A stretch of DNA of 64,000 bases. Source: Minisyncoccota bacterium. GTDB taxonomy: Bacteria; Patescibacteriota; Minisyncoccia; Phycocordibacterales; VMEP01. Position numbers and translations under genes: made by a program. Below the pieces are notes generated by a model that was given only the letters and a program-made list of their open reading frames with translations, did not search any database and was not told where the DNA came from. Of this stretch, positions 7,030 through 37,591 are shown piece by piece. Each line of letters opens with the position of its first letter. Position 1 is the first letter of the stretch. The stretch covers positions 4,884 through 68,883 of the forward strand of contig JBAZYZ010000001.1 in NCBI GenBank assembly GCA_041659085.1, read 5' to 3'.

Positions 7030-7060
7030 CCCCGACAGTAAGTAATACTTACTGTCGGGG
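7030..7060 (+). terminator. perfect 14-bp-stem hairpin terminator
   Basis: ccccgacagtaagtaatacttactgtcgggg perfect inverted repeat immediately after the 6371-7003 CDS. Confidence 0.6.
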
Positions 7061-7143
7061 TAGAGTGAATTTGGTCTGCCTGTGAATACACGTAGACAGG
7101 CGATTTTTACGCTTTAGCGCGCTGCCAAAATCTGTTACGGGAT
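7058..7143. repeat. intergenic palindromic repeat element, copy A (family CCCyGTrGyAGATTTTGGCA)
   Basis: arms gtagagtgaatttggtctgcc / gctgccaaaatctgttacggg; related to copies at 8215, 23941, 24886 and 37518. Confidence 0.55.
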
Positions 7144-7384
7144 ATCCACATGTTTCCTTTCAAAAACGCTTGCAAATGTTAAAATATAAGTAACTTTAAG
7201 GGTCGAACTTAAAGTTGTTACGCGTAGGAACTTTGGCGCTATTTGCCATTTTGGAAGGCGCGCGGTGTAAAATTCACCTAGCTTTTGCCGGACAAAAACA
7301 AAAAAGCCCCAAGACTCTTTATTAGGTAATAATAGTGTTAGCTATCCGTTTTTATTCGTTGTCTATAGCATTTGAATTTAAACG

Positions 7385-7399
7385 GTGGTTGTATAATTT
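7385..7399 (+). promoter_or_regulatory. extended -10 promoter (TGtTATAAT) abutting the start codon: candidate leaderless mRNA
   Basis: ggttgtataatttATG; -10 hexamer ends 2 nt before the ATG at 7400; no SD. Confidence 0.4.
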
Positions 7400-8092
7400 A
7401 TGTCTTTATTGGAAGTTTCGAGCAATGCGCTCGGTGGAGCGTTCTATAATCTTTGGGATGGAGTTATCAGTTCTGCCGTCAGCATAATTGTGGCAGTTAT
7501 TATTTTTGTTTTGGGCTGGGTCGTCGCATCCCTTGTTGAGAAGCTGATTGAGCAGCTTTTCAAGGCCATTATGGTCGATAAGGCTCTAAAAAGCGCCGGT
7601 GTTGAGGAAGCCCTCTCAAAGGGCGGAGTCAATTTGAATTCAGGAGCTTTCTTTGGAGGACTTGTTAAGTGGTTCCTCATCGTCGTGGTTTTGATGGCCT
7701 CGCTCCAGGTAGTCGGATTGACTCAGGTCAACGACTTCCTACGCGCGGTTGTAGGATATTTGCCGAACGTTATTGTAGCGGCGTTTATCTTGCTTGTTGC
7801 GGCAGTTGTTTCAAACGTTGTCGCACACATCGTCACGTCATCGTCCAAATCGGCCGGGGTTTCATCAGCCGGTTTCTTGGGCGGCATATCAAGGTGGGCT
7901 ATCTGGGTCTTTGCTTTCATGGCCGCGCTTGCGCAGCTTGGCATTGCCGGACAGCTTATGTTTATCCTCCTTCAGGGTATCGTAGCGATGCTTGCCATTG
8001 CCGGCGGTCTCGCTTTTGGTCTGGGAGGAAAAGAAGCGGCAGCCCGTTATATAGAAAAATTGCGCGAGGAGATTTCCAACAAAAGAGGCTAA
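7400..8092 (+). CDS. polytopic membrane protein with two internal TM-helix repeats, hypothetical
   Basis: 230 aa; 5-6 hydrophobic helices; two halves are similar (…IIVAVIIFVLGWVVASLVEK… / …VIVAAFILLVAAVVSNVVAH…). Confidence 0.65.
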   Translation: MSLLEVSSNALGGAFYNLWDGVISSAVSIIVAVIIFVLGWVVASLVEKLIEQLFKAIMVDKALKSAGVEEALSKGGVNLNSGAFFGGLVKWFLIVVVLMASLQVVGLTQVNDFLRAVVGYLPNVIVAAFILLVAAVVSNVVAHIVTSSSKSAGVSSAGFLGGISRWAIWVFAFMAALAQLGIAGQLMFILLQGIVAMLAIAGGLAFGLGGKEAAARYIEKLREEISNKRG

Positions 8093-8120
8093 CAGTTCGA
8101 CTGAGTTGGATATGTTTTAA

Positions 8121-8158
8121 TAAGAAAAACGCCCCGATTGGGGCGTTTTTCTTATTAA
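8121..8158. terminator. bidirectional hairpin terminator
   Basis: taagaaaaacgccccgattggggcgtttttcttatt: palindromic with A/T tracts on both sides. Confidence 0.65.
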
Positions 8159-8214
8159 AAAGAGGCAAGGTGACCCCTCTGTTTCTTGGTATTTTACGGT
8201 CTGGGGACATAAAA

Positions 8215-8377
8215 CGCTCTCTGTTTGACCCTGTGGCAGATTTTGGCGATGCGCCATGATGGTGTTGTTGATTTAGCGGTATTTATCTGTGAGTTTTACT
8301 ACCTTGTTTTTGGACATATTTCCGAGTGTTTTAAAGCCTTTCCGCCAAAGTTTACCGCGGGGTTGACATCGCTTTTC
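8215..8377. repeat. intergenic palindromic repeat element, copy B
   Basis: TTGAC-ccctgtggcagattttggcgatgcgcc ... ccgccaaagtttaccgcgggg-TTGAC; arms inverted; flanking TTGAC pentamers as in copy C. Confidence 0.5.
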
Positions 8378-8469
8378 TTTCATATATACTGTTCAAATCT
8401 AAGTATGTTTATTAACGAAAAACTAACCAACCGGCGTTTCAAATAAAGCCTTTTGTTAGGTTTTGTCTG

Positions 8470-8492
8470 AAACCGCCACAAGGCGGTTTTTT
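8470..8492 (+). terminator. hairpin with T-tract upstream of the 23S leader
   Basis: aaaccgccacaaggcggtttttt. Confidence 0.45.
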
Positions 8493-8704
8493 AGTTGTAA
8501 ACGTCTTAGCGTGTTCGTTGAAAATCGAATCCTGTTACCCGGTATATCCCAATTGTTATCTGGGGTCTGATTACCGGAGTAAACAGAATGTGAGACCTCG
8601 TTTCCCTGATTGTAGGGGAAATGAGATGGCGTGACTGAAGGAAGCGGTTCCGGATGTCGCGCAGCTTGCCCGAATTAATTTATTTAAGGCGGGTGAGTGC
8701 AATG

Positions 8705-12378
<3,674 letters not shown>

Positions 12379-12473
12379 CATTGCAAAAATACAATTAAAA
12401 AGAGTCGCGGAAAAAATTCCGCGCCTCGCACAAGCGCGTGACGCGCGTTTATGCGAGGCGCGAAAGTGTTTTG

Positions 12474-12549
12474 GGGTCTGTAGCTCAGTTGGGAGAGCGC
12501 TACGATGGCATCGTAGAGGTCACCGGTTCGATCCCGGTCGGGTCCACCA
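12474..12549 (+). tRNA. tRNA-Ala (anticodon GGC), CCA encoded
   Basis: Manual cloverleaf: acceptor gggtctg/cgggtcc with G3:U70; anticodon loop atGGCat; T-loop ttcgatc. Confidence 0.8.
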
Positions 12550-12593
12550 AAACATTTTTCGCCTCAAAGTTCGTCCCCGGCGAAAGTCGGCGA

Positions 12594-12666
12594 GTGGCCA
12601 TAGCTCAGCCTGGCAGAGCATCGGGCTCATACCCCAATGTCCTTGGTTCAAATCCAAGTGGCTACT
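12594..12666 (+). tRNA. tRNA-Met (anticodon CAU; elongator Met or Ile-lysidine type)
   Basis: acceptor gtggcca/tggctac; anticodon loop ctCATac; T-arm cttgg-ttcaaat-ccaag; one C-A mismatch in the anticodon stem; no encoded CCA. Confidence 0.65.
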
Positions 12667-12698
12667 CGGTTTAGATTTTTAAAAAAGTCGGGGTGTAG

Positions 12699-12772
12699 CT
12701 CAGCCCGGTAGAGCGTCTCCTCGGGGAGGAGAATGTCGGGGGTTCGAATCCCTTCACCGCGACCCGCCCGAA
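12699..12772 (+). tRNA. tRNA-Pro (anticodon GGG)
   Basis: C1-G72 pair typical of tRNA-Pro; anticodon stem tctcc/ggaga with loop tcGGGga; T-loop ttcgaat; one acceptor mismatch at 3:70. Confidence 0.6.
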
Positions 12773-12852
12773 CGGATTCATCCGGTAGGGCCACAGTTCT
12801 TTGTTTTATTTTTTTAACTCATTTTCGCGCAACTTAGCGCGTGATTGAGTGT

Positions 12853-12970
12853 CTTGTTCTGGTGATTTAATACAAGGGTCACACCTCTTCCCATTCCGAA
12901 CAGAGTCGTTAAGCCTTGCTATCGCGATGATACTCCTTGCGGGGAAAGTAGCTATCGCCAGAACAAGATA
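12853..12970 (+). rRNA. rrf: 5S ribosomal RNA
   Basis: helix I tcttgttctggtg / cgccagaacaaga; conserved cccattccgaacagag and gcggggaaagtag blocks. Confidence 0.75.
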
Positions 12971-12979
12971 CTCAAAAGT

Positions 12980-13007
12980 AAAAAACGCCCAAGAGGGCGT
13001 TTTTTAC
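12980..13007 (+). terminator. rho-independent terminator closing the 23S-tRNA-5S unit
   Basis: aaaaaacgcccaagagggcgttttttac. Confidence 0.75.
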
Positions 13008-13043
13008 TTGCCTACAAAGGTCAAAAGCTATAAGCTGGAAGTT

Positions 13044-13817
13044 ATGGATTGGTCCACGAAGAGAAAACTTACATACCTTTCAATTTTATTGCTCGTCATT
13101 TTGGTGGTCGCCGCTTATTTTCTGTACCCATTGTTTATAGAAAATCCGACCTGCTCCGACGGGAAACAAAATGGCGATGAAGTCGGAGTAGACTGCGGCG
13201 GTATATGCAACAATTTTTGCGCTTCCCAGGTCCGCCCCCTTAGTATTATTTGGCAGCGTTCGTTTGAGGTTGCGCCCGGCATTTATGACGTTCTCGGATA
13301 CGTGGAAAATCAAAACGCTGACGCCGGGGTGTCATCCCTTCTTTACAGGTTCAAACTCTACGATGATAAAAATGTTCTTATTGCCGAGCGCGATGGAAAA
13401 ACTTTCATTGGACCTAATCAGTCCGGGGCAATATTTAGCGGCGGCATAAATACGGGAGAGAGGATTCCTAAGCTCGTTTATTTGGAATTTGAAGATTATC
13501 AATGGACAAAGATAGACCCGCGTTTTTTGAAAATAAATTTTTCAGTTAAAAATCAGCAACTACTCAATGCTTCAACCAGCCCGCGATTGGCTGTTTCCGT
13601 GGGAAACGAATCTCTTACTGATTTAAGAAATGTTGAGGCAGCCGCGATTTTGCGCGACCAGGATGACAATGCCATCGCGGTAAGCAATACGGTTATAGAA
13701 AGTCTGCCCAAACAAAGTTCCAAGGATATTTTTTTCACCTGGCTGACTCCGCTCGAATTGCCTGTCGCAAGGATTGAGATAATTCCGCGTGTTAACCCCT
13801 TTACGGTTTCTTATTAG
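13044..13817 (+). CDS. membrane-anchored extracytoplasmic protein, hypothetical
   Basis: ATG at 13044 (the listed ORF start at 12849 overlaps the 5S rRNA); N-terminal TM helix, then 'CSDGKQNGDEVGVDCGGICNNFC' Cys-rich segment. Confidence 0.6.
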   Translation: MDWSTKRKLTYLSILLLVILVVAAYFLYPLFIENPTCSDGKQNGDEVGVDCGGICNNFCASQVRPLSIIWQRSFEVAPGIYDVLGYVENQNADAGVSSLLYRFKLYDDKNVLIAERDGKTFIGPNQSGAIFSGGINTGERIPKLVYLEFEDYQWTKIDPRFLKINFSVKNQQLLNASTSPRLAVSVGNESLTDLRNVEAAAILRDQDDNAIAVSNTVIESLPKQSSKDIFFTWLTPLELPVARIEIIPRVNPFTVSY

Positions 13818-13839
13818 ATATTTTTGGTATATTGAGGAC

Positions 13840-14976
13840 ATGGTTTTACCGGTATTCGCTCGAAGAATAATAAGCGGTGTTGATTGGATTTTATTTTTTG
13901 CGGTTTTACCGCTTCTGTTTTTTGGCCTGGTGACGATGAGTTCGTTTACTGACGCCAATATGTTTTTTGAAAAACAGCTTATCTGGATTGCTGTCGGGCT
14001 GTTTTTCTTTTTTCTGTTTGCTTCTATAGACGCGGGACCGCTTAAAAAAACCGGATTTTTGGTTTCTCTCTTTGCTTTTGCCTTGGCGCTCCTTCTCCTG
14101 GTGGCTTTTACGGGCAGCGCCGTTAAAGGCGCCAGAAGCTGGTTTAACCTCGGGTTTTTTTCGTTTGAGCCGGCCGATCCGGTAAAACTCTTGATTATAC
14201 TGATGCTTGCCAAGTATTTTTCCAGGCGCCATGTTGAAATAGCCCACTATAAGCATATTCTAATTTCCGGTTTGTATGCCTTCATACCGTTCATTCTCAT
14301 AATGCTTCAGCCCGATTTTGGTTCCGGGTTGATTATTTTTCTTATTTGGCTCGGCATGGTTATGGTTTCCGGGGTTTCCAAAAAACACCTTTTTATAATC
14401 TTTTCCATAGGTGTTATTTCTTTTGGGATGCTTTGGATGTTTGTGTTCAAGCCGTATCAAAAAAACCGCATTTTGACTTTCATACATCCGTTAACCGACA
14501 TTCGCGGCGCCGGGTACAATGCTTACCAGTCCACTATTGCCGTAGGCTCCGGAGAGATTTGGGGAAAGGGGATAGGGTATGGCACCCAATCCCGCCTCAA
14601 GTTCTTGCCCGAGTACGAGACTGATTTCGTATTCGCGGCTTTTGCCGAGGAGTGGGGTTTTGCGGGGATATTTCTTTTTTTTCTGCTTATCGGCATTGTC
14701 ATTTGGCGTATTTTGACTAATGCGCTGATTGGGGCGACCAATTTTGAAATGCTTTTTGGCATGGGCCTCGCGATATTTTTTATGAGCCACATAATCGTTA
14801 ATGTCGGCATGAACATAGGCCTTCTTCCCGTAACGGGAATTCCGCTGCCATTTATGAGTTACGGCGGTTCACACTTGGTAACCGAATTTATCGGGTTGGG
14901 AGTGCTTATGAGCATGCGTCGCAACAGCAGGGCCGCTCATCGCGATGCCATGAAGAATGAATTCTTGGGGATTTAG
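13840..14976 (+). CDS. ftsW: SEDS-family peptidoglycan glycosyltransferase (FtsW/RodA)
   Basis: 10-TM protein; C-terminal 'GLLPVTGIPLPFMSYGGSHLV' FtsW/RodA signature; ATG at 13840 chosen over the in-frame GTG at 13789. Confidence 0.85.
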   Translation: MVLPVFARRIISGVDWILFFAVLPLLFFGLVTMSSFTDANMFFEKQLIWIAVGLFFFFLFASIDAGPLKKTGFLVSLFAFALALLLLVAFTGSAVKGARSWFNLGFFSFEPADPVKLLIILMLAKYFSRRHVEIAHYKHILISGLYAFIPFILIMLQPDFGSGLIIFLIWLGMVMVSGVSKKHLFIIFSIGVISFGMLWMFVFKPYQKNRILTFIHPLTDIRGAGYNAYQSTIAVGSGEIWGKGIGYGTQSRLKFLPEYETDFVFAAFAEEWGFAGIFLFFLLIGIVIWRILTNALIGATNFEMLFGMGLAIFFMSHIIVNVGMNIGLLPVTGIPLPFMSYGGSHLVTEFIGLGVLMSMRRNSRAAHRDAMKNEFLGI

Positions 14977-16178: not shown

Positions 16179-16263
16179 ATATTTATGAGATTGTAACGCT
16201 ATTTCAGTTATTGCGAAAGGATGACCTTGTCTAAGGCATATTTTGCGGTAGTATTGTGTGGTA

Positions 16264-17604: not shown

Positions 17605-17704
17605 AGGGTTATCAGACCCTTTATTCCGACTTCGCTCAGATGCTGTGTAAGGGTATTTGCCCACAAGCTCTTCGTTCGTCGGAATAAAAACAAAAAATAT
17701 AAAG

Positions 17705-18784: not shown

Positions 18785-18787
18785 TAA

Positions 18788-21643: not shown

Positions 21644-21740
21644 AGAAGCGACAGTCCCGTAGTGAACCGGGCTTGTAGAGGTTCTACTACTTTGATTTCA
21701 AGGGGGGGGGGTAGGGTTGATTTTCTCAATAAATAAGCTT

Positions 21741-21773: not shown

Positions 21774-21801
21774 TTGACTTACGTTTCTCACCGAGTATAC
21801 T
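21774..21801 (+). promoter_or_regulatory. sigma70-type promoter for the stand-alone 16S rRNA gene
   Basis: TTGACT (21774-21779), 16-nt spacer, TATACT (21796-21801); ~320 nt upstream of the 16S 5' end. Confidence 0.5.
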
Positions 21802-22123
21802 AGTGAAGCGTCTAGAGGTAGACGGCTTTTAATTTGTAATTGCCCGATACTTTCTGGAACGTGTGAACTTTGACAAGATCCATAGTGCCCGATGGCTTGA
21901 ATAACCGTCGGGTAGAAAGGATCCACATAGTTAGTGCAAAATCACAACTCCGCCGGAGACAGCCTGTCTCTGGTGGTTAAAAAAATTCCAGTTTTAATCG
22001 AGTAGATTAAATTGGGACAAAGAAACCCGCCTCGTTTTTTACAAAACGATTCGGGCAGGTATTTTTTCTTTTGTTCCGCCTAATAATTTTTCGAAATTTT
22101 AATTTCACAAAATTTTCATTTAG

Positions 22124-23650
<1,527 letters not shown>

Positions 23651-23884
23651 ATTGAAAATGTTCGAGATTTATTTCGAATTCTTGGCCGGTGTTTATGCTT
23701 CACAAGGGCATAAATGGGTAATTATTGCCAAAACCCTAATTCGCAATACATTGCTCTGGATGTACCAGAGCAGAAAACCTAGCGTGGGAACGCAAAGGTT
23801 GGACGGAACAAAAGAAAGAATATTAACCCGCCTAAATTTTTGCGAACAAAAATTTTGGTGGGTAAGCACTAACTATAAGTCATC

Positions 23885-23915: not shown

Positions 23916-23940
23916 TGGGTGGATAGTGGTATTGACCCTG

Positions 23941-24017
23941 TAGTAGATTTTGGCACTGCGCCAAGAGGCGCGGGCATAGCCAGTGCCAAAATTCACTACG
24001 GGGTTGACTTTTTAGCC
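23941..24017. repeat. intergenic palindromic repeat element, copy C (best-preserved copy)
   Basis: TTGAC-cctgtagtagattttggcactgcgcc ...25 nt... cagtgccaaaattcactacgggg-TTGAC; ~23-bp inverted arms with identical flanking TTGAC pentamers. Confidence 0.6.
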
Positions 24018-24060
24018 GAAAGGTGCTTTAATTAAGGAAGGTCAACAACAGGAGATTGAT

Positions 24061-24325
24061 TATGATGTATCAAGGTCATCCGTTTACACAAGGGTTGCCG
24101 ACTGGCGTACAGCGAGTCATACAGAGCCTGATGGGGGTCGTCAGCCTGGTCGTCGTCGTTGTCCTTGTCGTCTTTATGGTCAAGGACTTAAAGAGCAAGC
24201 TCGATGCTCCCCAAGTCTACGTCTCCAATTCAACGGGGGAATGCGTGAAAGTTGTTTCGCCAAAGGGCGAGCAGCCATGCAAGCCAGGAGACGAAAGGAA
24301 ATATGAGCGTGTCTGGGTGAAGTAG
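24061..24325 (+). CDS. small membrane protein (one TM helix, Cys-containing C-terminal ectodomain), hypothetical
   Basis: caggag SD 8 nt upstream of the ATG at 24061; 'VVSLVVVVVLVVFMV' TM helix; C-terminal '...GECVKVVSPKGEQPCKPG'; GC elevated (~50%) relative to neighbours. Confidence 0.5.
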
Positions 24326-24346
24326 CTCACCTACGCTCAAGCAACA

Positions 24347-24373
24347 AAATGGGCCGGGTTCGTAATGAACCCG
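24347..24373. terminator. bidirectional hairpin terminator shared by convergent genes
   Basis: gggccgggttcgtaatgaacccggccc. Confidence 0.65.
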
Positions 24374-24381
24374 GCCCTTTC

Positions 24382-24741
24382 CTATTGTCTCGGCGCTCTT
24401 TGCAGCCGGTCGTTCAAAATCTCGTTTAGGACGCCGCGTAATTTGCGTCCCAGGCGGCCGCTTTCGAATTTCGTTTCCAGGTGCGCCAGAACGCTAGACA
24501 GCGTTTGGAGCCTGGTTGTCCCGAGTCTGCCCGCTTGGCGCAGCTTTTCCAGCTTCTTCAGTTCCAATATGAATCGTTCCTGGTCGGATGATTTGAGAGA
24601 TATCATCCAGTGGGTGTCCTTCTGCACCCTTTCTTTGTCTGATAATCTGCCGGCCCTGACTTCGCCGCGCTTCGTGTTCCTTGTGGTCATTTGCCCCATA
24701 CGCGCCGGAACCGCAGATTTCATTACCAGTATTCTGCACAT
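24382..24741 (-). CDS. small basic protein (119 aa, Arg/Lys-rich), hypothetical
   Basis: strong GGAGGA SD 9 nt upstream of the ATG on the minus strand; the opposite-strand ORF is S/P/R/L-rich junk; stop abuts the hairpin terminator. Confidence 0.55.
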   Translation of the reverse strand: MCRILVMKSAVPARMGQMTTRNTKRGEVRAGRLSDKERVQKDTHWMISLKSSDQERFILELKKLEKLRQAGRLGTTRLQTLSSVLAHLETKFESGRLGRKLRGVLNEILNDRLQRAPRQ

Positions 24742-24885: not shown

Positions 24886-24925
24886 TAGTTCCCCTGTGGC
24901 AGGGCAAAGCTCACTACGGGGCAGG
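24886..24925. repeat. degenerate palindromic repeat element, copy D
   Basis: cccctgtggcagggcaaagctcactacgggg; shares the CCCyGTrG / CACTACGGGG termini of the family. Confidence 0.4.
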
Positions 24926-25770: not shown

Positions 25771-25854
25771 CCGAGGTGGTGAAATTGGTAGACACGTACG
25801 CTTCAGAAGCGTATGTCGAAAGACATGGGAGTTCAAGTCTCCCCCTCGGCACCA
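25771..25854 (+). tRNA. tRNA-Leu (anticodon CAG), type II with long variable arm
   Basis: acceptor gccgagg/cctcggc; anticodon loop ttCAGaa; variable arm tgtcgaaagacatg; 3' ...cctcggcacca. Confidence 0.8.
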
Positions 25855-26258: not shown

Positions 26259-26265
26259 CTGATTT

Positions 26266-27099: not shown

Positions 27100-27114
27100 C
27101 GGGTATTCTGGTGA

Positions 27115-29513: not shown

Positions 29514-30841
29514 ATGAAATTAACTTAGATAAAATTAAGCACGTGCACTTTATAGGCATCGGCGGAATCGGTGTTTCAGCTGTGGCTAGGATGATGCTCG
29601 TCCAAGGTAAAAATGTTTCCGGTTCGGATGTGTCCGAGTCTAGGGTCACCAAGGAACTCATGGAACTCGGCGCGCATATTTCTATCGGACATAAAGCGGG
29701 AAATATTCCAAGGGAAGCTGATTTGATGATCCATACCATCGCCGTCTCGCCGAATAATCCTGAGTTTGAAGAAGCTACGCGCCGCGATATTCCGGCTTTT
29801 TCATACCCGGAATTCCTCGGAATAATTTCTGAGAATATGTTTACTATTGCCGTTTCCGGAACGCACGGGAAGACTACCACTACGGCGATGCTCGCGGATG
29901 TTCTTTGGAGTGAGGGGATAAACCCCACGGTAATTGTGGGTAGTCTGTTAAAAAATGCCGGGAGCAATTTTATTGCCGGAGATTTTCCGGCTCATATTTT
30001 AGGCGAGGAATATGATAAGGGGGTGTTGGTTGTTGAAGCCTGCGAATACCGACGCTCGTTCATAAATTTGAATCCGCGCGTTCTTATTATTACAAACATT
30101 GATAACGACCACCTTGATTACTATAAGGATATTGGCGATATAATTTCGGCTTTTAATGAGGTTGCCTGCAAAGTTCCGGAGAATGGTTTTATTATCGCCA
30201 ATACCCAAAATTCTTACATTAAGAGGGCTTTAAAAGGAGTGAAGGCGCAGATTATAGATTATTCCGTTTATGACGCTTCGGACCTTAGTTTAAAGGTTCC
30301 CGGAACCCATAACAGAGAAAATGCCAAAGCTGTCTTGGCTCTGGTATCGGTGCTTAGATCTGACCCGGCTAAAGCCGAAGAGGCTCTCGATGACTTCTCT
30401 GGCACTTGGCGGAGATTTGAATTCAAGGGCGGGACGAAAGGTGGTGCTATTATTTATGATGACTATGGACATCACCCGACAGAAGTTAAGGCTACGCTTT
30501 CCGGCGCGCGGGAGAAATTCCCGGACCGCAAAATTACCGTTGTTTTTCAGCCCCATCTTTATTCCCGCACCAAACTTCTGCTTGACGATTTTGCCCGCGC
30601 TTTCGGCGATGCCGACAATGTCATTCTTGCTCCGATTTACGCAGCTCGGGAAGAATTTGACCCGAACATAAATAGCGAGATGTTGGCCGAAAAAATACGC
30701 ATGTTGAATGGCAGCGTCAGCTCCTTTACTGATTTAAAAAATATCGTTGAGTATTTGAAGCATAGCCTTAAACACGGCGACATATTGATCACTATGGGCG
30801 CTGGAGATGTTTACAAAGTGGGGGAAGCATTGACAGAATAG
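29510..30841 (+). CDS. murC: UDP-N-acetylmuramate--L-alanine ligase
   Basis: 'VHFIGIGGIGVSAVARMM' plus 'IAVSGTHGKTTTTAML'; ATGA overlap with the upstream gene. Confidence 0.88.
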   Translation: MNEINLDKIKHVHFIGIGGIGVSAVARMMLVQGKNVSGSDVSESRVTKELMELGAHISIGHKAGNIPREADLMIHTIAVSPNNPEFEEATRRDIPAFSYPEFLGIISENMFTIAVSGTHGKTTTTAMLADVLWSEGINPTVIVGSLLKNAGSNFIAGDFPAHILGEEYDKGVLVVEACEYRRSFINLNPRVLIITNIDNDHLDYYKDIGDIISAFNEVACKVPENGFIIANTQNSYIKRALKGVKAQIIDYSVYDASDLSLKVPGTHNRENAKAVLALVSVLRSDPAKAEEALDDFSGTWRRFEFKGGTKGGAIIYDDYGHHPTEVKATLSGAREKFPDRKITVVFQPHLYSRTKLLLDDFARAFGDADNVILAPIYAAREEFDPNINSEMLAEKIRMLNGSVSSFTDLKNIVEYLKHSLKHGDILITMGAGDVYKVGEALTE

Positions 30842-30919
30842 TATTTTTATTACATACTACGAAGTAGTGTTCTCAAAATGTTTTTGGGCTTGTCGGATAA
30901 ATATCAACCGGAGAGGAAG

Positions 30920-31102
30920 ATGAAGGAATCAAGAAATCCGTTTAGGCACACTAGGCTGTGCGCCGGGTGCGGCAGGCCAACAGCGCTCCTTGTTCACGAC
31001 GGCTGCGCGGAAAGGTTTGCGAAGAAGGCCAAAAATAAGCCCGCAAGAAAGGCCAGGAAGAAAACATCCTATCCTGAGGGGTTTATAAAAACCCTAGAAT
31101 GA
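30920..31102 (+). CDS. small basic Cys-containing protein (CAGCG...DGC), hypothetical
   Basis: GGAGAGGAAG 2 nt before the ATG; 60 aa; Lys/Arg-rich C-terminus; followed by a terminator. Confidence 0.45.
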   Translation: MKESRNPFRHTRLCAGCGRPTALLVHDGCAERFAKKAKNKPARKARKKTSYPEGFIKTLE

Positions 31103-31120
31103 GTTTCCAGATTTTTGATT

Positions 31121-31150
31121 GAGCCCCGCTTTACGCGGGGCTTCGTTTTG
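31121..31150 (+). terminator. rho-independent terminator
   Basis: gagccccgctttacgcggggcttcgttttg. Confidence 0.65.
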
Positions 31151-31164
31151 TGTACGTTATTCAT

Positions 31165-31860
31165 ATGTCCACTCTATATATCGTCGCCACTCCAATCGGA
31201 AATCTTGAAGACATTACTCTCCGGGCTATCCGAATTTTGAAGGAAGTTGAGTTGATACTCTGCGAGGATACGCGGATGACTAAGAGGCTTTTGAATAAGT
31301 ATGAAATCAGCACACCGACTATGAGTTATCACGCCCAGTCCAAACTTTCAAAGGTCGGAAAAATTTTTGAACTTTTGGAAGAAGGGAAAAATCTGGCGCT
31401 TGTGTCTGACGCCGGCACTCCGACTATTTCCGACCCCGGGGTTCTGCTCGTTTCTCAGGTAAAGGAAAAATTCGGCAGTGAGACAAAAATAGTGCCCGTC
31501 CCGGGGGCCTCAGCTGTCATTTCCGCCCTGTCGGCTTCAGGCGTACTATCCTCAGAATTTACTTTCTTGGGCTTCTTACCGCACAAGAAAGGAAGAGAGA
31601 CTTTATTTAAAGAGATCGCTGAGGCGAAAAGAACAACGGTTTTTTATGAGTCTCCGCATCGCATAATGAAGACACTCGCATCTCTTTCATCCCATTTGGA
31701 AGCCTCGCTTCCAAGCAAAAGAAAAATAGTGGTTGCGCGGGAATTGACTAAAATACATGAAGAGTTTCCGGAAGGAACCCCTGCGGAACTATTGGAATAT
31801 TTCAATAAAAATAAGGAGAGAGTTCGCGGGGAATTTGTGGTCATCGTATCCGGAAAGTAG
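31165..31860 (+). CDS. rsmI: 16S rRNA (cytidine1402-2'-O)-methyltransferase
   Basis: 'LYIVATPIGNLEDITLRAIRILKEVELILCEDTR' RsmI/tetrapyrrole-methylase-fold signature; ATG at 31165 preferred over GTG 31150, which lies inside the terminator. Confidence 0.85.
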   Translation: MSTLYIVATPIGNLEDITLRAIRILKEVELILCEDTRMTKRLLNKYEISTPTMSYHAQSKLSKVGKIFELLEEGKNLALVSDAGTPTISDPGVLLVSQVKEKFGSETKIVPVPGASAVISALSASGVLSSEFTFLGFLPHKKGRETLFKEIAEAKRTTVFYESPHRIMKTLASLSSHLEASLPSKRKIVVARELTKIHEEFPEGTPAELLEYFNKNKERVRGEFVVIVSGK

Positions 31861-31896
31861 GTTTTAAAGATGTCTTAGGTTTGCTATAATCCTCCC

Positions 31897-32139
31897 ATGT
31901 CAAAAAAGCGAACGATTATAATCTTGGGTTTATTGGTGGCGCTTTTGCCGTTTTCCGGCATTCCAAGGGGAATACGCGAATCACTTTCGGCTTTAGCGGG
32001 TCTTGTTATAGCGGTGCTGGCTTTTCTTTTGAAGCGTAAGATTGAGCGGATGGCTATGGGGGAGAGCAATGACACTTTTTCACAAAACAGCGTTTACTCG
32101 GTTCCTCAGGAGGGAGGAGAAAAAGAAGCAAAAAGCTAA
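31897..32139 (+). CDS. small membrane protein (two TM helices), hypothetical
   Basis: preceded by an extended -10 (tgctataat) 6 nt upstream of the ATG: leaderless candidate. Confidence 0.5.
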   Translation: MSKKRTIIILGLLVALLPFSGIPRGIRESLSALAGLVIAVLAFLLKRKIERMAMGESNDTFSQNSVYSVPQEGGEKEAKS

Positions 32140-32163
32140 AGCCCCGCTTAATCCGGTCCAATA

Positions 32164-33438
32164 ATGAAAAGAATTTTTAAGGGGAAACATTTTTTTGTCG
32201 GAGCGTCCCTCGGCGTTTTTGCCGTGGCTGGTTATTTGGGACTGTCATTTATACCAGGCGAAACATACAGTTCGGAAGGCGGGTTGGAGGCGCTTGCGAC
32301 TAGCTCTGCAGACAAAATTGTTGAAGTAAAAAACACGGATGGTAAAAGCGCTAATTTCCAGGCAGTTGCGCATATGGAGACACCAGAACCGCTCAAGGCG
32401 ATTTATATGACCGCCTGTGTCGCAGGTACTCCGTCCTGGCGCGAACGTATGGCAAAATTGGTTGAGACGACGGAATTAAACTCAATCATTATTGATATCA
32501 AAGATTATAGCGGCGCCATCTCAATTGAAACAAATAACCCTATCTTTAAGGATAATGTCGGCAAAGGTTGCCGGGTAAAAGATATGCGGGAATTCGTGTC
32601 GTTTCTGCACGACAAAGGCATATATGTAATAGGGCGTATTACCGTTTTTCAGGACCCATATTACACAAAAGCTCACCCGGAACTGGCGGTGAAAAAAATG
32701 TCCAACAAGGAAGTTGTATGGAAAGACCGCAAAGGACTTTCTTTTATAGATGTCGGAGCCAAGCCTTATTGGGATTATATCGTAGAGCTTGGCAAAGAAT
32801 CTTACGATATGGGTTTTGATGAACTGAATTTTGACTACATCCGTTTCCCGTCCGATGGCGATATGAGGGACATCTACTTCTCTTACGGCGTGGGAAAAAC
32901 AAAAGCTGAGGCGCTGGAAGAGTTCTTTATATACCTTAATGACCAACTGAAGCCAATTGGCGCTGTTTTGTCCGCCGATTTGTTTGGCATGACAGCGACC
33001 AATAATGACGACCTCAATATCGGGCAGGTTCTTGAACGCGCTCTCCCGCATTTTGATTACGTGTCGCCGATGGTTTATCCGTCGCATTACCCGACCGGTT
33101 TCAACGGCTGGAAAAACGTTAATGCCCATCCGTATGACATTGTTAAGTTCTCGCTTGCTCGCGCGGTGGAGAGGACCGAGGCAACCACGACGGCGGTTAA
33201 CTTTTTGGGAGCGGCAATCATATCCTCGGGAACTACCACGAAGAGTGTTATATACGCGAAGGAGCCTTACCCTAGGGGGAAAATCCGCCCGTGGCTGCAG
33301 GATTTCAGCTATCCCGTAACATATACGCCGGAGATGGTGAAAGCGCAGATACAAGCGACATATGATGTAGGCCTCACTAGTTGGATGCTCTGGGACCCGG
33401 CCAATAAATATACTCCCAGTATTTTGCTGAAGGAGTAA
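32164..33438 (+). CDS. putative glycoside-hydrolase-like TIM-barrel protein (DUF4015/YngK-like), N-terminally membrane-anchored
   Basis: N-terminal TM helix; '...NSIIIDIKDYSG...GIYVIGRITVFQDP...GFDELNFDYIRFP' resembles GH-like (GHL) families. Confidence 0.5.
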   Translation: MKRIFKGKHFFVGASLGVFAVAGYLGLSFIPGETYSSEGGLEALATSSADKIVEVKNTDGKSANFQAVAHMETPEPLKAIYMTACVAGTPSWRERMAKLVETTELNSIIIDIKDYSGAISIETNNPIFKDNVGKGCRVKDMREFVSFLHDKGIYVIGRITVFQDPYYTKAHPELAVKKMSNKEVVWKDRKGLSFIDVGAKPYWDYIVELGKESYDMGFDELNFDYIRFPSDGDMRDIYFSYGVGKTKAEALEEFFIYLNDQLKPIGAVLSADLFGMTATNNDDLNIGQVLERALPHFDYVSPMVYPSHYPTGFNGWKNVNAHPYDIVKFSLARAVERTEATTTAVNFLGAAIISSGTTTKSVIYAKEPYPRGKIRPWLQDFSYPVTYTPEMVKAQIQATYDVGLTSWMLWDPANKYTPSILLKE

Positions 33439-33584
33439 CTTTTTGGTTTATCCCCAAAAACTATTGACCGCCATTACCCGTGTGGTAACATTTAAATAGT
33501 CGCTGCTTCACGATATTAAGCGGCTAAACGCTCTTCCCCTCGGCATTTTTGTGAGGGACAAACTCAATAGAAGAAGGAGACTAT

Positions 33585-33986
33585 ATGAAACGCAACAAAC
33601 TGTTGTCCCTCGCGTTGGTAGCTCTGGCAATCAGCGTCGGCGCCTCCAGCGTATTCGCAGCCTCGAATCCGACCGTCGGCGGCGTCGATCAAGCGACCAC
33701 CACCAAGACTTTCACCAACCCGGCGCCCGTGGCTGCGGGTACCAACACCGGCGCGCGCGAGGCCGTGGCCAGTCCGACCGTCAACGTGAAGCCGGCAGCA
33801 GCGACCATCAGCGCGCAGAAAGCGACCACCGCCAGCGCCAAGGACCAGATCGCCGCCAAGGCCGTCTCGCTCGATTCGGCAACCGCCACCGCCACCGCTG
33901 CGGTCAATGCCGGCCTCGTTCTCGCCGTCGCGCATACGGTCGACGCCTCCGCCAACCCGGCAGCAATGGTACCGCTGCTGAACTGA
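33585..33986 (+). CDS. secreted Ala/Thr-rich low-complexity protein encoded in a GC-rich (~64%) segment
   Basis: AAGGAG SD 6 nt before the ATG; signal peptide MKRNKLLSLALVALAISVGASSVFA|A; GC3-rich codons (gcc/acc/ggc/gtc) contrast with flanking ~40% GC. Confidence 0.65.
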   Translation: MKRNKLLSLALVALAISVGASSVFAASNPTVGGVDQATTTKTFTNPAPVAAGTNTGAREAVASPTVNVKPAAATISAQKATTASAKDQIAAKAVSLDSATATATAAVNAGLVLAVAHTVDASANPAAMVPLLN

Positions 33987-34014
33987 GCTTTCTGTTCTAG
34001 GGTCTTACGGCCCA

Positions 34015-34038
34015 ACCCCCCTCTTCGGAGGGGATTTT
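34015..34038 (+). terminator. rho-independent terminator
   Basis: cccccctcttcggaggggattttt. Confidence 0.7.
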
Positions 34039-34145
34039 TGTTTTGTGCTAACAATATTTTCATATATACTTTTAAAATAGACGCGAGGAGCTAGAAATCA
34101 GAAGTTGGGTAATCTAACTTCCGATTTCTAACCTCTAATTTCCAA

Positions 34146-36032
34146 ATGTCAGACCAGGATAAAATCACATATATCGGGGAGACCGATTTTCGCAATAAAA
34201 AAATAAAATTTGGCATCAAGGCCAAAGATCGGACGCGCCATGTTTACATCATCGGTAAGACGGGCATGGGTAAGTCCACGCTTCTTGAAAATATGGCGGT
34301 GCAGGATATTGTGAACGGCGAAGGCATGGCTTTCATAGACCCTCACGGTGGCACAGCGGAAAAGCTTCTGGACTATATCCCCGAGAGCCGCGTCAAAGAT
34401 GTTATTTATTTTGCCCCGTTTGACGCGGATTACCCGGTTTCTTTCAATGTGATGGAAGACGTCGGCGCCGATAAGCGGCATCTGGTGGCAAACGGACTCA
34501 TGAACGCTTTCAAAAAAATCTGGGTGGATGCCTGGAGCGCCCGCATGGAATATATTTTAAACAATGTCCTCTTGGCTCTTCTTGAATACCCCGATTCCAC
34601 GATTCTAGGCGTCAACCGCATGCTCTCCGACAAGGATTACCGCAATCTGGTGGTGGCAAATGTTACCGATGCTTCGGTAAAGTCTTTCTGGGTGGATGAG
34701 TTCGCCAAATATGGCGACAAATATATGCAGGAAGCCGGCGCGGCGATTCAGAATAAAATAGGACAGTTTATCTCCAACCCGCTTATAAGAAACATAATCG
34801 GCCAGCCTAAATCTTCCTTTGATATAAGGAAGATAATGGATGAGAAAAAAATTCTCATCATGAACCTTTCCAAAGGAAGGATGGGTATTGAGAACTCTAC
34901 GCTCTTGGGCAACATGCTGGTAACCAAAATTTACCTCGGGGCAATGTCGCGCGCGGACGCGTCCGCTTCTCTGTTGCAAAAACTCCCAAATTTTTACTTC
35001 TATGTTGACGAATTTCAATCTTTTGCCAACGAATCGTTTGCCGATATTTTGTCTGAGGCGCGCAAATATAAGTTGTCGCTTACCATAGCGCACCAGTATG
35101 TGAATCAGATGCCGGAAGAGGTAAGAGACGCGGTTTTCGGCAACGTGGGTTCTATGGTTACTTTTCGCATCGGTCCGGAGGATGCCGAATTATTCGAAAA
35201 AGAATTTGCCCCTGAATTCATAGCGGATGATTTGGTTAATCTGGGGTTTTCTCAGATATATCTCCGTCTTATGATAGACGGGATAGGTTCCAAGCCGTTT
35301 TCCGCCACGACATTGCCTCCGATCGCGCAGGAGAGAGAGTCCCATAAAGACGAGGTCATAGATGGGACCAGAAAAATTTACGCGACTCCGCGAACGAAGG
35401 TTGAAGGATTCATAAACAAATGGTATGAGTCGGTTGCGCCGCCCAAAGCGCCAAGGGAAAGGAAAGATAAAGACGCCCCGGAGCAACCCGCTTCTCCGCG
35501 CGAATTCAAAAACGATGTGGCCGGATCCGGGTCAAGGCCGGCTCCGGATAAAAAACCGGTCGACCACATTATCCGGGAAGAAATTAAAGTCGGACATACG
35601 ACACCAGTTGCTCCTCGGGAAATCCCGCATGAGGCCCAAAAATGGCCCACGATGAATGATAAAGCGGGTGTGAGTAATGTCGATAGAACGCCCAAAAACA
35701 GGCCGTTTATAGCTAAAATAGAGCCCAAGCCGATAACACCTGTTTCTTTGAGTCAGCTTAAGCCTGAGGCTGTAAAAGGGCAGTCAAGGAACTCAATGGC
35801 CTTAAAGGAGGCGTTGGCTGCCGCTCTCAAAGAAAAAGTTGCCGTCCCGTTTTCATCCGAACCAAAAAAAGAAGTTCCAACAAGCAGTGTTCCCCAAAAT
35901 ATACCTGAGGCTACGGATGGCGGACTAAGACAGGAAGAAAAAAAGTGGGAAGAGATGAAAAAACATCACGATACCCCAAAAGCTCCAAAGGAAATTCCGG
36001 AAGATGTTTTGAGAAAAATATTAAACGAATAA
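34146..36032 (+). CDS. TraG/VirD4/HerA-superfamily P-loop ATPase (type IV coupling-protein-like, no N-terminal TM segment) with ~230-aa disordered K/P/E-rich C-terminal tail
   Basis: Walker A 'IIGKTGMGKSTLL'; 'AFIDPHGG'; Walker B 'FYFYVDEFQSF'; 'SLTIAHQYVNQMPEEVRDAVFGNVGSMVTFRIG' resembling T4CP motifs; low-complexity tail. Confidence 0.65.
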   Translation: MSDQDKITYIGETDFRNKKIKFGIKAKDRTRHVYIIGKTGMGKSTLLENMAVQDIVNGEGMAFIDPHGGTAEKLLDYIPESRVKDVIYFAPFDADYPVSFNVMEDVGADKRHLVANGLMNAFKKIWVDAWSARMEYILNNVLLALLEYPDSTILGVNRMLSDKDYRNLVVANVTDASVKSFWVDEFAKYGDKYMQEAGAAIQNKIGQFISNPLIRNIIGQPKSSFDIRKIMDEKKILIMNLSKGRMGIENSTLLGNMLVTKIYLGAMSRADASASLLQKLPNFYFYVDEFQSFANESFADILSEARKYKLSLTIAHQYVNQMPEEVRDAVFGNVGSMVTFRIGPEDAELFEKEFAPEFIADDLVNLGFSQIYLRLMIDGIGSKPFSATTLPPIAQERESHKDEVIDGTRKIYATPRTKVEGFINKWYESVAPPKAPRERKDKDAPEQPASPREFKNDVAGSGSRPAPDKKPVDHIIREEIKVGHTTPVAPREIPHEAQKWPTMNDKAGVSNVDRTPKNRPFIAKIEPKPITPVSLSQLKPEAVKGQSRNSMALKEALAAALKEKVAVPFSSEPKKEVPTSSVPQNIPEATDGGLRQEEKKWEEMKKHHDTPKAPKEIPEDVLRKILNE

Positions 36033-36048
36033 AAATAAGTGTTCTGTC

Positions 36049-37491
36049 GTGAACTACAGAAGCATAATAATTTTTTTATGTTTTGTTCAGTTGATTGCGC
36101 CGTCTCCGGTGCGCGCTGGTATTATATTTTCGGAAATAATGTACGACTTGGACGGTTCTGACACCGGCCGCGAGTGGGTGGAAATTTTCAACGATAGTGG
36201 CAGCAGTATTGATTTAACCGGTTGGAAGTTTAATGACGGATCCAATCACGTACTTAACATTCCGCCCAAAAATGGAAGCTCGGGTTCCATGGTGGTTCCT
36301 TCCGGCGGATACGCTGTCTTTGCGGGCGATGCCGTCGTATTTTTGAGCGAATACCGCGGATTTGCGGGAACTGTTATCGACACGGCGATGAGTCTCGGTA
36401 ACTCAAGCTCAACGCTCTCGATTATTGATTCAAACGGCTCTGTTGTTGATTCTGTTTTATACGATAAATCCGCCGGCGCGAACGGAGACGGAAACTCTTT
36501 GCAAAAAAATATAAACGGCGCGTGGGTTGCCGCCGCGCCGGTCCCTGGCGCGGGGTCGTTTGTTATTTCCGGTCAAAACGAGACAAGTTCTCCTCCCGAT
36601 AATGATATTTCTCCAGCGCCGGTATCTTCGGGGGGAGGGGATACAAGATGGTTGGTGGAGCCGCAGGTATTTGCCGACGCCGGCAAGGATAGGGCGGTTA
36701 TTGTAGGCGCTTCAGCTGTGTTTGAAGCCAAGGCATTCGGTCTCAAGAAGGAGCCGCTTGATAACGCCAGATATCTTTGGAATTTTGGCGATGGGGCTAT
36801 CGGGGAAGGAAAAATGGCCGAACACACATATCGGCACCCCGGGGATTATTTGGTTGTGGTGGAAGTTGCCTCAGGCTATTACTCGGGTGAAGACCAGCTT
36901 AAGGTGCGGGCGGAAGCTTCGCCGCTTTCGGTTTCGGCGATTACTGACGGCTCGGGTTATTTTGTGGAACTTTCCAATCCCTCAAACACCGACATCAACA
37001 TTTCGCACTGGGGGCTCGCGCTCGCGGATAAAGTTTTTGCCATCCCCAAGAACACTTTCGTGATGGCGGGCAAAAAACTTATTTTCCCGAATGAAGTAAC
37101 CGGACTTTTGGTCGGGGCGGGAAGCGCGCCGGAGCTTCGTTATCCGAATGGGACTTTGGCAAGCAGGTTTGGCGAAGTAAAAAATAAATCGGCTGAGGTG
37201 GCTGTTCAAATGACGCCAAAATCGGAGCAGCAGGGGATTTCCAATAGAGATATGCCGGCGGATAATGGAGTGAGAATTGCTCAGGCGGAAGAAAACGATT
37301 CAGGGAAGGAGAACATGGCCGCCGTATCAGAGAGTTTGCCGAAAAAATCTTCAACAAAATACATTTGGCTTTTCGGGGTAGTTGGTATTTCCGCCCTGGC
37401 TCTCTCGGGGGTGTTTTTGGCGCGCAGGCTTGAACAACCGAATGACAGGCTTAAAAAACTCGCGGATGAAATAGAAATTATTGAAGAATAG
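36049..37491 (+). CDS. cell-surface protein: signal peptide - lamin tail domain - PKD domain - second LTD - C-terminal TM anchor
   Basis: GTG start 16 nt after the upstream stop; 'GIIFSEIMYD...GREWVEIFNDSGSSIDLTGWKF' LTD; 'YLWNFGDGAIGEGKMAEHTYRHPGDYLVVVEV' PKD; 'GYFVELSNPSNTDINISHWGLA' second LTD; C-terminal 'IWLFGVVGISALALSGVFLA'. Confidence 0.75.
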   Translation: MNYRSIIIFLCFVQLIAPSPVRAGIIFSEIMYDLDGSDTGREWVEIFNDSGSSIDLTGWKFNDGSNHVLNIPPKNGSSGSMVVPSGGYAVFAGDAVVFLSEYRGFAGTVIDTAMSLGNSSSTLSIIDSNGSVVDSVLYDKSAGANGDGNSLQKNINGAWVAAAPVPGAGSFVISGQNETSSPPDNDISPAPVSSGGGDTRWLVEPQVFADAGKDRAVIVGASAVFEAKAFGLKKEPLDNARYLWNFGDGAIGEGKMAEHTYRHPGDYLVVVEVASGYYSGEDQLKVRAEASPLSVSAITDGSGYFVELSNPSNTDINISHWGLALADKVFAIPKNTFVMAGKKLIFPNEVTGLLVGAGSAPELRYPNGTLASRFGEVKNKSAEVAVQMTPKSEQQGISNRDMPADNGVRIAQAEENDSGKENMAAVSESLPKKSSTKYIWLFGVVGISALALSGVFLARRLEQPNDRLKKLADEIEIIEE

Positions 37492-37517
37492 CCCCGGTAG
37501 TACCTGCCTGCCGACAA

Positions 37518-37591
37518 GTAGGTAGGGAATTTGGCAAAGCAGGCCGTAGTCACGGCCTGCGCATTACTCAATTGCCAAATTCACCACAGGG
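37518..37591. repeat. intergenic palindromic repeat element, copy E
   Basis: ggtagggaatttggcaaagc-aggccgtagtcacggcct-...caattgccaaattcaccacaggg. Confidence 0.5.

Follow-up and report, generated by a model that had tools for sequence, protein, structure and literature searches.

This analysis concerns a family of short palindromic DNA elements that lie between the genes of a Minisyncoccota bacterium, in a stretch of 64,000 nucleotides (nt) of contig JBAZYZ010000001.1 that we call the window throughout. The window has a GC content of 44.5%, and nearly all of its genes are on the plus strand. Its ribosomal RNA (rRNA) genes are unlinked and stand in an unusual order: the 23S gene (8716-12368) is grouped with those of tRNA-Ala, tRNA-Met, tRNA-Pro and 5S rRNA (the group spans 8716-12963), and the 16S gene (22115-23652) lies 9 kb downstream, with tRNA-Ile and tRNA-Leu after it. 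The window has its gene order L10-L12-hypothetical-MscS-like-23S in common with four Paceibacterota/Patescibacteria loci from metagenome-assembled genomes (MAGs), and a 3.9-kb Logan contig (SRR18595301) is 100% identical to window positions 4882-8759. A first-pass annotation of this DNA had listed five dispersed copies of the repeat. Inverted-repeat elements do lie at or near all five places, but they are not equivalent: copy C is the only intact copy in the window, copy E begins at 37492 rather than at 37518, and a sixth, possible remnant (F) had been missed. The copies, with the direct repeats and promoter motifs that adjoin them, are as follows.

Copy A, 7060..7142, minus strand: decayed and inverted, with 5' arm CCCGTAACAGATTTTGGCAG (minus strand) and a degenerate 3' arm GACCAAATTCACTCTAC
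Left direct repeat of copy B, 8225..8228, no strand: TTGA, read from the sequence
Copy B, 8229..8362, plus strand: 134 nt, enlarged and partly decayed, with arms CCCTGTGGCAGATTTTGGCG and CGCCAAAGTTTACCGCGGGG and a 92-nt spacer
23S promoter adjoining copy B, 8363..8390, plus strand: -35 TTGACA (8363-8368, including the right TTGA), 16-nt spacer, -10 TATACT (8385-8390)
Copy F, 21656..21690, minus strand: CCCGTAGTGAAC..GTTCTACTAC, possibly a remnant, in the interval from secF to the 16S promoter
Left direct repeat of copy C, 23932..23935, no strand: TTGA, the outer copy of the target duplication, read from the sequence
Copy C, 23936..24003, plus strand: canonical, 68 nt, with 5' arm CCCTGTAGTAGATTTTGGCA and 3' arm TGCCAAAATTCACTACGGGG
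Right direct repeat of copy C, 24004..24009, plus strand: TTGA within a -35-like TTGACT, a putative promoter motif
Copy D, 24891..24921, plus strand: 31-nt miniature with the outer arms only, CCCCTGTGGCAG-GGCAAAGC-TCACTACGGGG
Copy E, 37492..37591, plus strand (orientation ambiguous): subfamily variant with outer 5' arm CCCCGGTAGTA, inner arm GAATTTGGCAA, a spacer hairpin and 3' arm TTGCCAAATTCACCACAGGG

The family is defined by two near-invariant arms of about 20 nt, CCCYGTAGTAGATTTTGGCR...YGCCAAAATTCACTACRGGG, which enclose a variable spacer. Its consensus can be written A-C-CCYGTAGTAGATTTTGGCR-N-[hairpin 1][hairpin 2]-N-YGCCAAAATTCACTACRGG-G-T, where the element is taken to include the outer C...G pair; the unit usually measures about 65-90 bp, with a range of 41-152. 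The arms, (C)CCYGTAGTAGATTTTGGCR and YGCCAAAATTCACTACRGG(G), differ at two fixed positions (TAGA versus TGAA), so that of their 20-22 nt about 18-20 positions pair and a fixed irregularity, TAGA opposite TTCA, recurs in nearly every copy. There is no palindrome within the arm CCCGTAGTAGATTTTGGCAT itself; the hairpins belong to the spacer. In copy C the spacer consists of two such hairpins, GCGCC..GGCGC and GGC..GCC.

All window copies were scored with a covariance model built from 56 copies found outside the window. Copy C reaches 77.6 bits (E=4e-20) and copy E 19.2 bits (E=0.003). The low score of copy B (10.4 bits, E=0.98) is due to its 92-nt spacer, which the model penalises; B keeps both arms, with five non-Watson-Crick arm positions, and a 35-nt stretch of it matches C at 86% identity. 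Copies A (10.9 bits, E=0.69), D (8.8 bits, E=2.9) and F (12.2 bits, E=0.29; match at 21654-21696, minus strand) are not significant individually. One arm of copy A fits the strict search pattern, and its degenerate arm is fused to a terminator hairpin at 7030-7060. Copy D has close parallels at two loci elsewhere, L011 (CCTGTAGTAGAGCAGAGCTCACTACAGGG, 27.5 bits) and L188; such L-numbers denote loci from the scans described below, for which the gene calls are crude (stop-to-stop or longest open reading frame, ORF). In copy E an extra hairpin (37503-37526, CCTGCCTGCC...) sits after GTAGTA in the 5' arm, and the same architecture, CCTGCC(T/G)GCC...GGCAGG in the same place, is found in L083, L124 and L168.

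One objection to such a family is that there is no repeated element at all, and that chance palindromes or a shared terminator or promoter consensus have been grouped together. The right-hand TTGAC of both B and C does coincide with the promoter -35 consensus, canonical terminators adjoin A, B and C, and A, D and F fall short of significance on their own. However, the 20-nt arm consensus finds three matches in the window at three or fewer mismatches, compared with 0.01 expected by chance. A T-tract is absent, and separate terminators already precede B and C, for which reasons an intrinsic terminator was dropped as a candidate. The promoter consensus contributes to the flanks of the element, but not to the element. 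Above all, the similarity is not confined to the window: about 180 further copies with both arms exist elsewhere (some 61 genome loci and at least 115 metagenome loci), and these already refute the objection, to which we attach practically no probability.

These further copies come from two scans, in which taxon labels are record titles. The first searched one genome per species (185,579 species) with a 23-nt 5'-arm pattern, CCYGTRRYAGATTTTGGCRNNGC; the second, independent of the first, searched metagenomes with the 3' arm alone as the query. Conservation of the 5' arm in the first scan is partly by construction, which the second scan corrects for the other arm alone. The first scan returned 66 loci, 61 of them in Patescibacteria or unclassified MAGs and five in other phyla. 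All 61 carry a matching 3' arm within 130 nt; none of the five does. Their titles name Paceibacterota, the Parcubacteria group, Kaiser-, Nomura-, Zambryski-, Wolfe- and Taylorbacteria, 'Patescibacteria group' and unclassified MAGs, and they include an 'uncultured Candidatus Saccharibacteria', a label that is unverified. The second scan gave at least 123 matches in at least 120 loci, with the 5' arm within 260 nt in at least 115, and this unselected arm is at least 97% invariant at 17 of 18 positions among the matches listed. Both scans together comprise 162 unique copies among the matches listed, which measure 41-152 nt with a median of 70 nt. The two arms always occur together, and solo arms were not found. 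In a control scan of viral contigs, none of nine matches had a second arm, marking them as chance matches, and plasmid and phage collections held no match to the element. At least seven copies with differing flanking repeats (TTTTA, TATGG, TTGA, TCAA...) share one contig of 701,796 bp, and an identical 65-nt element occupies two unrelated sites, L020 and L120. [quoted passage not shown] The repeats thus belong to an apparently undescribed family of hairpin-forming mobile DNA of about 70 bp, present in many Patescibacteria (CPR) genomes.

A number of other palindromes share only the outermost bases with this family (CCCGT.../...ACGGG or CCCGGTAGTGAA...TTCTACTACCGGG) and differ in their inner arms. 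They occur at L026 (~2560-2650), L015 (6194-6266), L044 (1899-2028) and L063 (2947-3082), and their flanks hold short repeats of the same kind (GTCAAC, TCAA, TTGCA), which suggests a wider superfamily.

Spacers are wholly different between genomes and alike within one, as the four copies of JBBTWE01 and the four of JAGLPS01 illustrate. What is kept is the ability to fold: 61 of 62 spacers fold better than their shuffles (mean z=-3.3), and 42 of the 62 form two hairpins. Copy C folds strongly both as RNA (z=-8.7) and as DNA (z=-8.2 and -7.5 for the two strands); copy B, as DNA, folds no better than shuffled sequence. Within the arms, two inner pairs covary, from A-U to G-C (14 copies) and from U-A to A-U (21 copies), and so does the outermost pair (C-G 49, T-A 7). 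The Y:R arm position does not covary (C-G 23, T.G 16, C.A 9, C.C 7, T-A 5).

Strong folds and covarying arm pairs are what one would look for in a structured non-coding or cis-regulatory RNA, for instance an RNA with a three-way junction, a site for RNase III or an element that stabilises transcripts, and the plus strand of copies B and C in the window does fold better through G.U pairs, UUGAC pairing with GUUGA. Over 61-63 copies, however, the strand preference of the whole element is small (-1.4 kcal/mol, 40 versus 22), and G.U pairs make up just 2-4% of spacer pairs on either strand (21 of 569 on the plus strand, 12 of 557 on the minus strand). An invariant stem with a variable apex is the reverse of what typical RNAs show. 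Element orientation bears no relation to the direction of neighbouring genes and is random relative to promoters too; most copies lie upstream of a -35 box and therefore outside the adjacent transcript. Rfam 15 has no match to any window copy at the gathering threshold, nor at E<=1 to five loci with canonical copies. RNA was rejected as a general explanation on the small strand bias and the rarity of G.U pairs, and we rate it as very improbable. Because the spacer hairpins are Watson-Crick, each of the two DNA strands is able to adopt a three-way junction, and the small strand bias, the few G.U pairs and the random orientation together point to a structure that acts at the DNA level, as a single strand of either polarity or as a cruciform, rather than at the RNA level.

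There are several signs that these units have been inserted where they are found. Direct repeats of at least 4 nt stand immediately at both ends of 42 of 61 genome copies and, among the matches listed, of 74 of 105 metagenome copies; random re-pairing of the flanks (2000 trials) gave 7.5 and 8.3 on average, with maxima of 15 and 17. Four nucleotides is the commonest repeat length (TCAA, TTGA), followed by five (TATCA, TAGCA, TAACA, TTATA, TGCAA) and rarely six or seven, so a fixed-length duplication was abandoned: no constant 4-, 5- or 6-bp model fits all copies. The TTGAC...TTGAC bracketing reported earlier for B and C is present. As an insertion footprint it has to be shortened to the 4-bp repeat TTGA, since the fifth base, C, belongs to the element on the left and to the native -35 hexamer on the right. 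For copy C, the predicted empty site is GGATAGTGGTATTGACTTTTTAGCCG.

Comparisons between homologous sites, which the first-pass annotation had recommended, do reveal filled and empty states. In the 16S gene of L029, a Kaiserbacteria MAG, a copy sits between AAAG and ATTTAT with the target partly duplicated, and the same position is empty in the window and in L044. The leucyl-tRNA synthetase (LeuRS) of L034 carries an in-frame insert of 25 residues, PVVDFGIAEQSPAKTDNAKIHYGVD, between WxPVD and VDxYxGGxEHA, at a point where residues 530/532 of the Thermus thermophilus enzyme are contiguous. In-frame copies are likewise found in Dus (L025) and in SMC (L081/L088, L156), all read in the same frame as PVVDFG...AKIHYGV. 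At the 23S promoter, the window, L021 and L027 have a copy, L042 has one in inverted orientation, and L071 is empty. Between L120 and L155, whose flanks are ~80-85% identical, the copy has been inverted in situ with 64 of 65 nt identical; between L020 and L146, with flanks of the same similarity, the arms are kept and the spacer is entirely different. It may be added that the element-free syntenic 23S promoter of L071 (6690-6740) has two copies of GTTGACAA 24 nt apart, which could be the footprint of a lost element or a coincidence.

On this evidence, the repeats of the window are probably variously decayed copies of a non-autonomous palindromic mobile DNA element, of the MITE type and with structural constraints like those of REPINs, which agrees with the earlier suggestion of a small mobile repeat resembling repetitive extragenic palindromic (REP) sequences or MITEs. 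Active transposition, perhaps by way of a single-stranded or cruciform intermediate, would account for the pattern. In such a scheme an enzyme acting in trans would insert the unit through a 4-5-bp staggered cut at the target, as the flanks suggest, with a preference for the start of sigma-70-type elements (TTGA in a -35, TGnTA in an extended -10) or of DnaA boxes. The duplication would restore the motif on one side and leave a spare copy on the other, which is why B and C would look bracketed by TTGAC.

The position of the copies relative to promoters deserves particular attention; all promoter calls here are motif-based. The right-hand TTGAC of copy B belongs to the 23S promoter (TTGACA-16 nt-TATACT), where it forms the -35 box. 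In the window, copies B, C, D and E each adjoin a hexamer that is followed by a -10-like motif 16-18 nt on. Downstream of C there is a weak -10, TTTAAT (24027-24032), 17 nt from TTGACT and ahead of an ORF at 24062-24325; D adjoins CAGGCA-18 nt-TATAAT upstream of tRNA-Ile; and E adjoins TTCGGT-17 nt-TAGTAT upstream of an SDR gene. D and E have weak -35-like hexamers, and these two sites may act as promoters, to judge from their motifs. Outside the window, TTGnnn directly after the element is accompanied by TAnnnT at 16-18 nt in 22 of 32 genome cases and, among the matches listed, in 27 of 35 metagenome cases (0-9 at control spacings). For copies with a TCAA repeat the promoter is on the other side and reads away. 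The promoter stands at the 5' arm in 39 cases and at the 3' arm in 26, and 14 copies adjoin an extended -10 (TGnTAnnnT).

A mere preference for certain tetranucleotides can be examined against a background of all other intergenic sites in the same loci:

TTGA: promoter-like next to the element in 42/58 (72%), in the background 280/2080 (13%), p=2e-23
TTGAC[AT]: promoter-like next to the element in 82%, in the background 41%, p=3e-6
TTGC: promoter-like next to the element in 12/14 (86%), in the background 11%, p=2e-10

This excess at real promoters means that a tetranucleotide preference alone is insufficient. At the tuf promoter, moreover, the duplicated bases track the variant of the -35 box, with TTTGA at TTTGACA in L101 and TTGC at TTGCAA in L115. 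It is this tracking, together with the TTGAC[AT] and TTGC figures, that makes us favour a promoter-directed reading over one of sequence preference. The occupied promoters are those of rRNA, tRNAs, tuf, secE-nusG, infC-rplT, L27, L9, nusA, clpB, lexA and similar genes. A smaller group, 12 of 179 copies, adjoins the DnaA-box-like TTATCCACA, and there the duplicated bases are the first 4-7 nt of the box. We are left with either targeting beyond sequence, by a bound protein or by promoter DNA structure, or selective retention of the copies at promoter edges. A more specific proposal, which we put forward tentatively, is that protein-occupied motifs, namely those of sigma-70/RNA polymerase (-35, extended -10) and the DnaA box, guide integration or retention to their upstream edge, and that the unit would be either a promoter-homing element or a domesticated cruciform module upstream of the promoters of the most highly expressed genes in Patescibacteria.

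Some details of these junctions may be recorded here. The DnaA-box copies include those at L064 (7652-7664), L100, L141, L143, L147, L154, L185 and window position 7143-7150, where the end of copy A adjoins the DnaA-box-like TATCCACA. A lexA-like promoter with a DnaA-like box ~10 nt upstream of the -35/SOS-box/-10 was seen in four genomes, and in L158 it has two elements in tandem. In L033, L061, L068, L037 and L028 a -10 or extended -10 lies by the element and an ATG follows 7-9 nt on, which implies leaderless mRNAs.

The same data can be read from the side of the host. The element would then be a cis-acting module of strong promoters, whose arms or cruciform are recognised by a protein that tunes or insulates transcription, or absorbs supercoils, at translation genes, and the transposon features would be history. 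The same promoters (23S, tuf, secE-nusG, lexA, as well as infC-rplT, L27 and L9) are filled, in either orientation, in very divergent genomes, whose identity is ~80% for 16S, ~77% for 23S, 43-52% for the MscS-like protein and 54-78% for LexA at the amino acid level; this fits long-term retention by selection as well as it fits repeated targeting. The element is also far better conserved than its flanks (64 of 65 nt versus ~83%), both arms are never separated, even sites shared across deep divergences keep an intact outer direct repeat, and the association is with promoters rather than with a tetranucleotide, as the TTGC figures indicate. Nevertheless, the spread is patchy, with 66 strict-match loci across the 185,579 species genomes and an empty 23S promoter in L071, and the copies inside 16S, LeuRS, Dus and SMC can have no promoter role there. 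No recognisable promoter motif adjoins 95 of the 162 unique copies among the matches listed. Spacers of 3-130 nt on B-DNA are beyond the reach of any single binding protein, and no candidate protein was found. We consider a host module unlikely. Among other candidates, a sigma-54 promoter and a parS or other spaced operator were considered and dropped, and so was an invertible promoter switch, there being no promoter inside the element.

The favoured explanation, a MITE-type mobile element, has to be held against several results that weigh on the other side. The length of the flanking repeats is not constant (4, 5 and occasionally 6-7 nt), and about 30% of copies have no clear repeat. The occupation of the same promoters in very distant genomes, just described, and the individual non-significance of copies A, D and F belong here as well. 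Spacer hairpins are not expected of an ordinary MITE of the DDE type. Exact-protein look-ups for strain variants of the window organism yielded nothing further, and in the 64-kb window and the one other contig of the organism, which is identical to it, there was no polymorphism at the population level. Finally, the associated transposase that the first-pass annotation had proposed to look for did not turn up: no transposase or recombinase is encoded by the 30 window ORFs, none is found among the recurrent neighbours in 169 loci, where housekeeping genes alone recur, and no arm pair encloses such a gene.

The search for an autonomous partner ended in the same way. No copy contains an ORF of its own, and no autonomous insertion sequence with matching ends, from which a MITE would take its transposase, was seen in the window or in ~1.3 Mb of flanking DNA at the other loci. 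An autonomous element was rejected as a candidate, since at these loci no arm stands alone and no arms at a distance of 0.3-4 kb enclose a transposase; the genes between neighbouring arms encode L20/IF3, RNA-binding and RNase J-like proteins, L27 and L9.

As to the mechanism of movement alone, a further possibility is that the unit is mobilised as a folded single strand by an HUH/Y1 enzyme (RAYT- or IS200/IS605-like) or by an enzyme of the tyrosine-recombinase type, as an analogue of REPINs or attC sites. The spacer is kept only as hairpins, as in REPINs (PMC3337134). GTAG/CTAC occurs within the arms, a three-way junction can form on either strand, and lineage-specific spacers joined to shared arms suggest long residence within lineages. 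Against this stand the flanking direct repeats, which vary between copies, since IS200/IS605-type transposition is not known to make such repeats. The arms are not themselves palindromes, no element-flanked Y1 or RAYT gene was seen in ~180 loci, the attC boxes R''/R' (RYYYAAC/GTTRRRY) are unmatched with flanks that are direct rather than inverted, and the copy number is low. We consider single-strand mobilisation of this kind rather improbable.

Several other features of the window lie close to the elements. The first-pass annotation had seen copies C and D as brackets of a two-gene insertion. The rise in GC between them is real (54-56% at 24056-24741, versus the window mean of 44.5%), but there is no sign that C and D mobilised the genes; with the GC rise as its sole support, a composite transposon of C and D was dropped. 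The stretch encodes an 87-residue membrane protein (plus strand) and a 119-residue basic protein (minus strand), neither with a Pfam match. Directly after 16S (23826-23863) stands a second, distinct hairpin, CCCGCCTAA(A/G)TTTT...AAAAyTTTGGyGGG, which recurs in at least two other Patescibacteria loci (L030 ~1770-1810, L048 2844-2877). The 16S gene has its own promoter, TTGACT-16-TATACT, at 21774, and a run of eleven G (21704-21714) separates remnant F from the terminator ahead of this promoter. The 23S gene measures 3653 nt compared with a 2925-nt model, corresponding to ~700 nt of insertions; it has inverted repeats at 10578-10669 and 11704-11949, none of which fits the element model. A motif TTTCATATATAC(T/C) is present at 8378-8402, 34058-34082 and 48827-48851, and since the first of these takes in the -10 of the 23S promoter, the motif probably represents a recurrent setting of promoter -10 boxes in this genome. 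Upstream of copy E (34146-37491) are the genes of a VirD4/TraG-like coupling ATPase (628 residues) and then of a 480-residue protein with a lamin-tail and a PKD domain.

Patescibacteria have tiny genomes, in which repeats and mobile DNA are generally considered scarce. In the present case, one short element with near-identical ends is found across many of their lineages, even inside rRNA and essential protein genes, which it does not destroy. Since it marks the upstream promoter edge base for base, it offers a computational handle on promoter architecture in bacteria that cannot be cultured alone, and the architecture that can be read in this way comprises TTGACA-16/17-TATAAT, extended -10 motifs and leaderless starts. 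If the positions reflect targeting, the element would be a bacterial counterpart of the promoter-directed integration known from eukaryotic retroelements; if they reflect retention, it would be a new kind of structural module upstream of promoters. There are practical sides to this, too: the elements will interrupt or confuse assemblies around rRNA genes, and their lineage-specific spacers are potential strain markers.

Among known systems, the palindromes derived from IS200/IS605 insert on the 3' side of a single fixed motif of four or five nucleotides and do not duplicate the target. The present element differs in having the same short sequence on both sides, and this sequence varies between the copies of one genome. 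The Rickettsia palindromic elements (RPE) are found between genes and also in frame within conserved protein genes, which they do not break, and the in-frame copies in LeuRS, Dus and SMC are reminiscent of them. The sequences are unrelated, however, and the host phylum is different; the copies described here are mostly intergenic, at promoter edges, with clear 4-5-bp direct repeats.

The attC sites of integrons, which were considered and dropped, resemble the element as imperfect palindromes whose outer stem is conserved, whose mismatches are fixed and whose terminal structure varies, and which can fold as single-stranded DNA. The element lacks their core sites (R'' RYYYAAC, R' GTTRRRY), and its flanks are direct (GTCAAC...GTCAAC, TTGAC...TTGAC) and not complementary; there are neither cassette arrays nor an intI nearby, and the copies are dispersed in both orientations.

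In REPINs, the spacer keeps hairpin structure and not sequence, and a RAYT (Y1/HUH) transposase, whose gene is present once and has the repeats on its two sides, mobilises them (PMC3337134). The element shares with them the two conserved inverted arms that form a hairpin, a spacer conserved as folding ability alone, lineage-specific spacers, a GTAG motif in the arm and an apparently long persistence within lineages. It departs from them in arms that are not imperfect palindromes, in its variable flanking direct repeats, in the ~180 loci without a RAYT gene flanked by elements, and in having a handful of copies per genome in place of tens to hundreds.

A resemblance of another kind is seen with the Correia/NEMIS elements of Neisseria, which are likewise small, non-coding, dispersed long hairpins with terminal inverted repeats and short duplications, often situated just upstream of genes. 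In-situ inversion has been reported for Correia elements (PMC10969869), and L120 versus L155 gives an example of it here. On the other hand, the duplication in the present family is 4-5 bp and mostly TTGA rather than TA, the element has no promoter of its own and adjoins an existing -35 or extended -10, and the search for a cognate insertion sequence whose ends would match gave none. Its spacer is kept as hairpins, ~2-7 copies are seen per genome, and its arms are common to very divergent Patescibacteria.

The definition that suits the element best is that of a MITE, a small unit (~50-800 bp) without transposase coding capacity (PMC11602168; the defining features are also given in PMC10969869). 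With a median of 70 nt, a range of 41-152 and no ORF of its own, the element falls within these bounds of size and coding content. Its arms of ~20-22 nt exceed the 10-15 bp required as a minimum for terminal inverted repeats, and its target-site duplications lie within 2-10 bp and differ between copies (42/61, and 74/105 among the matches listed). Lastly, homologous sites are found both filled and empty, in the 16S gene, in LeuRS and at the 23S promoter that is empty in L071.

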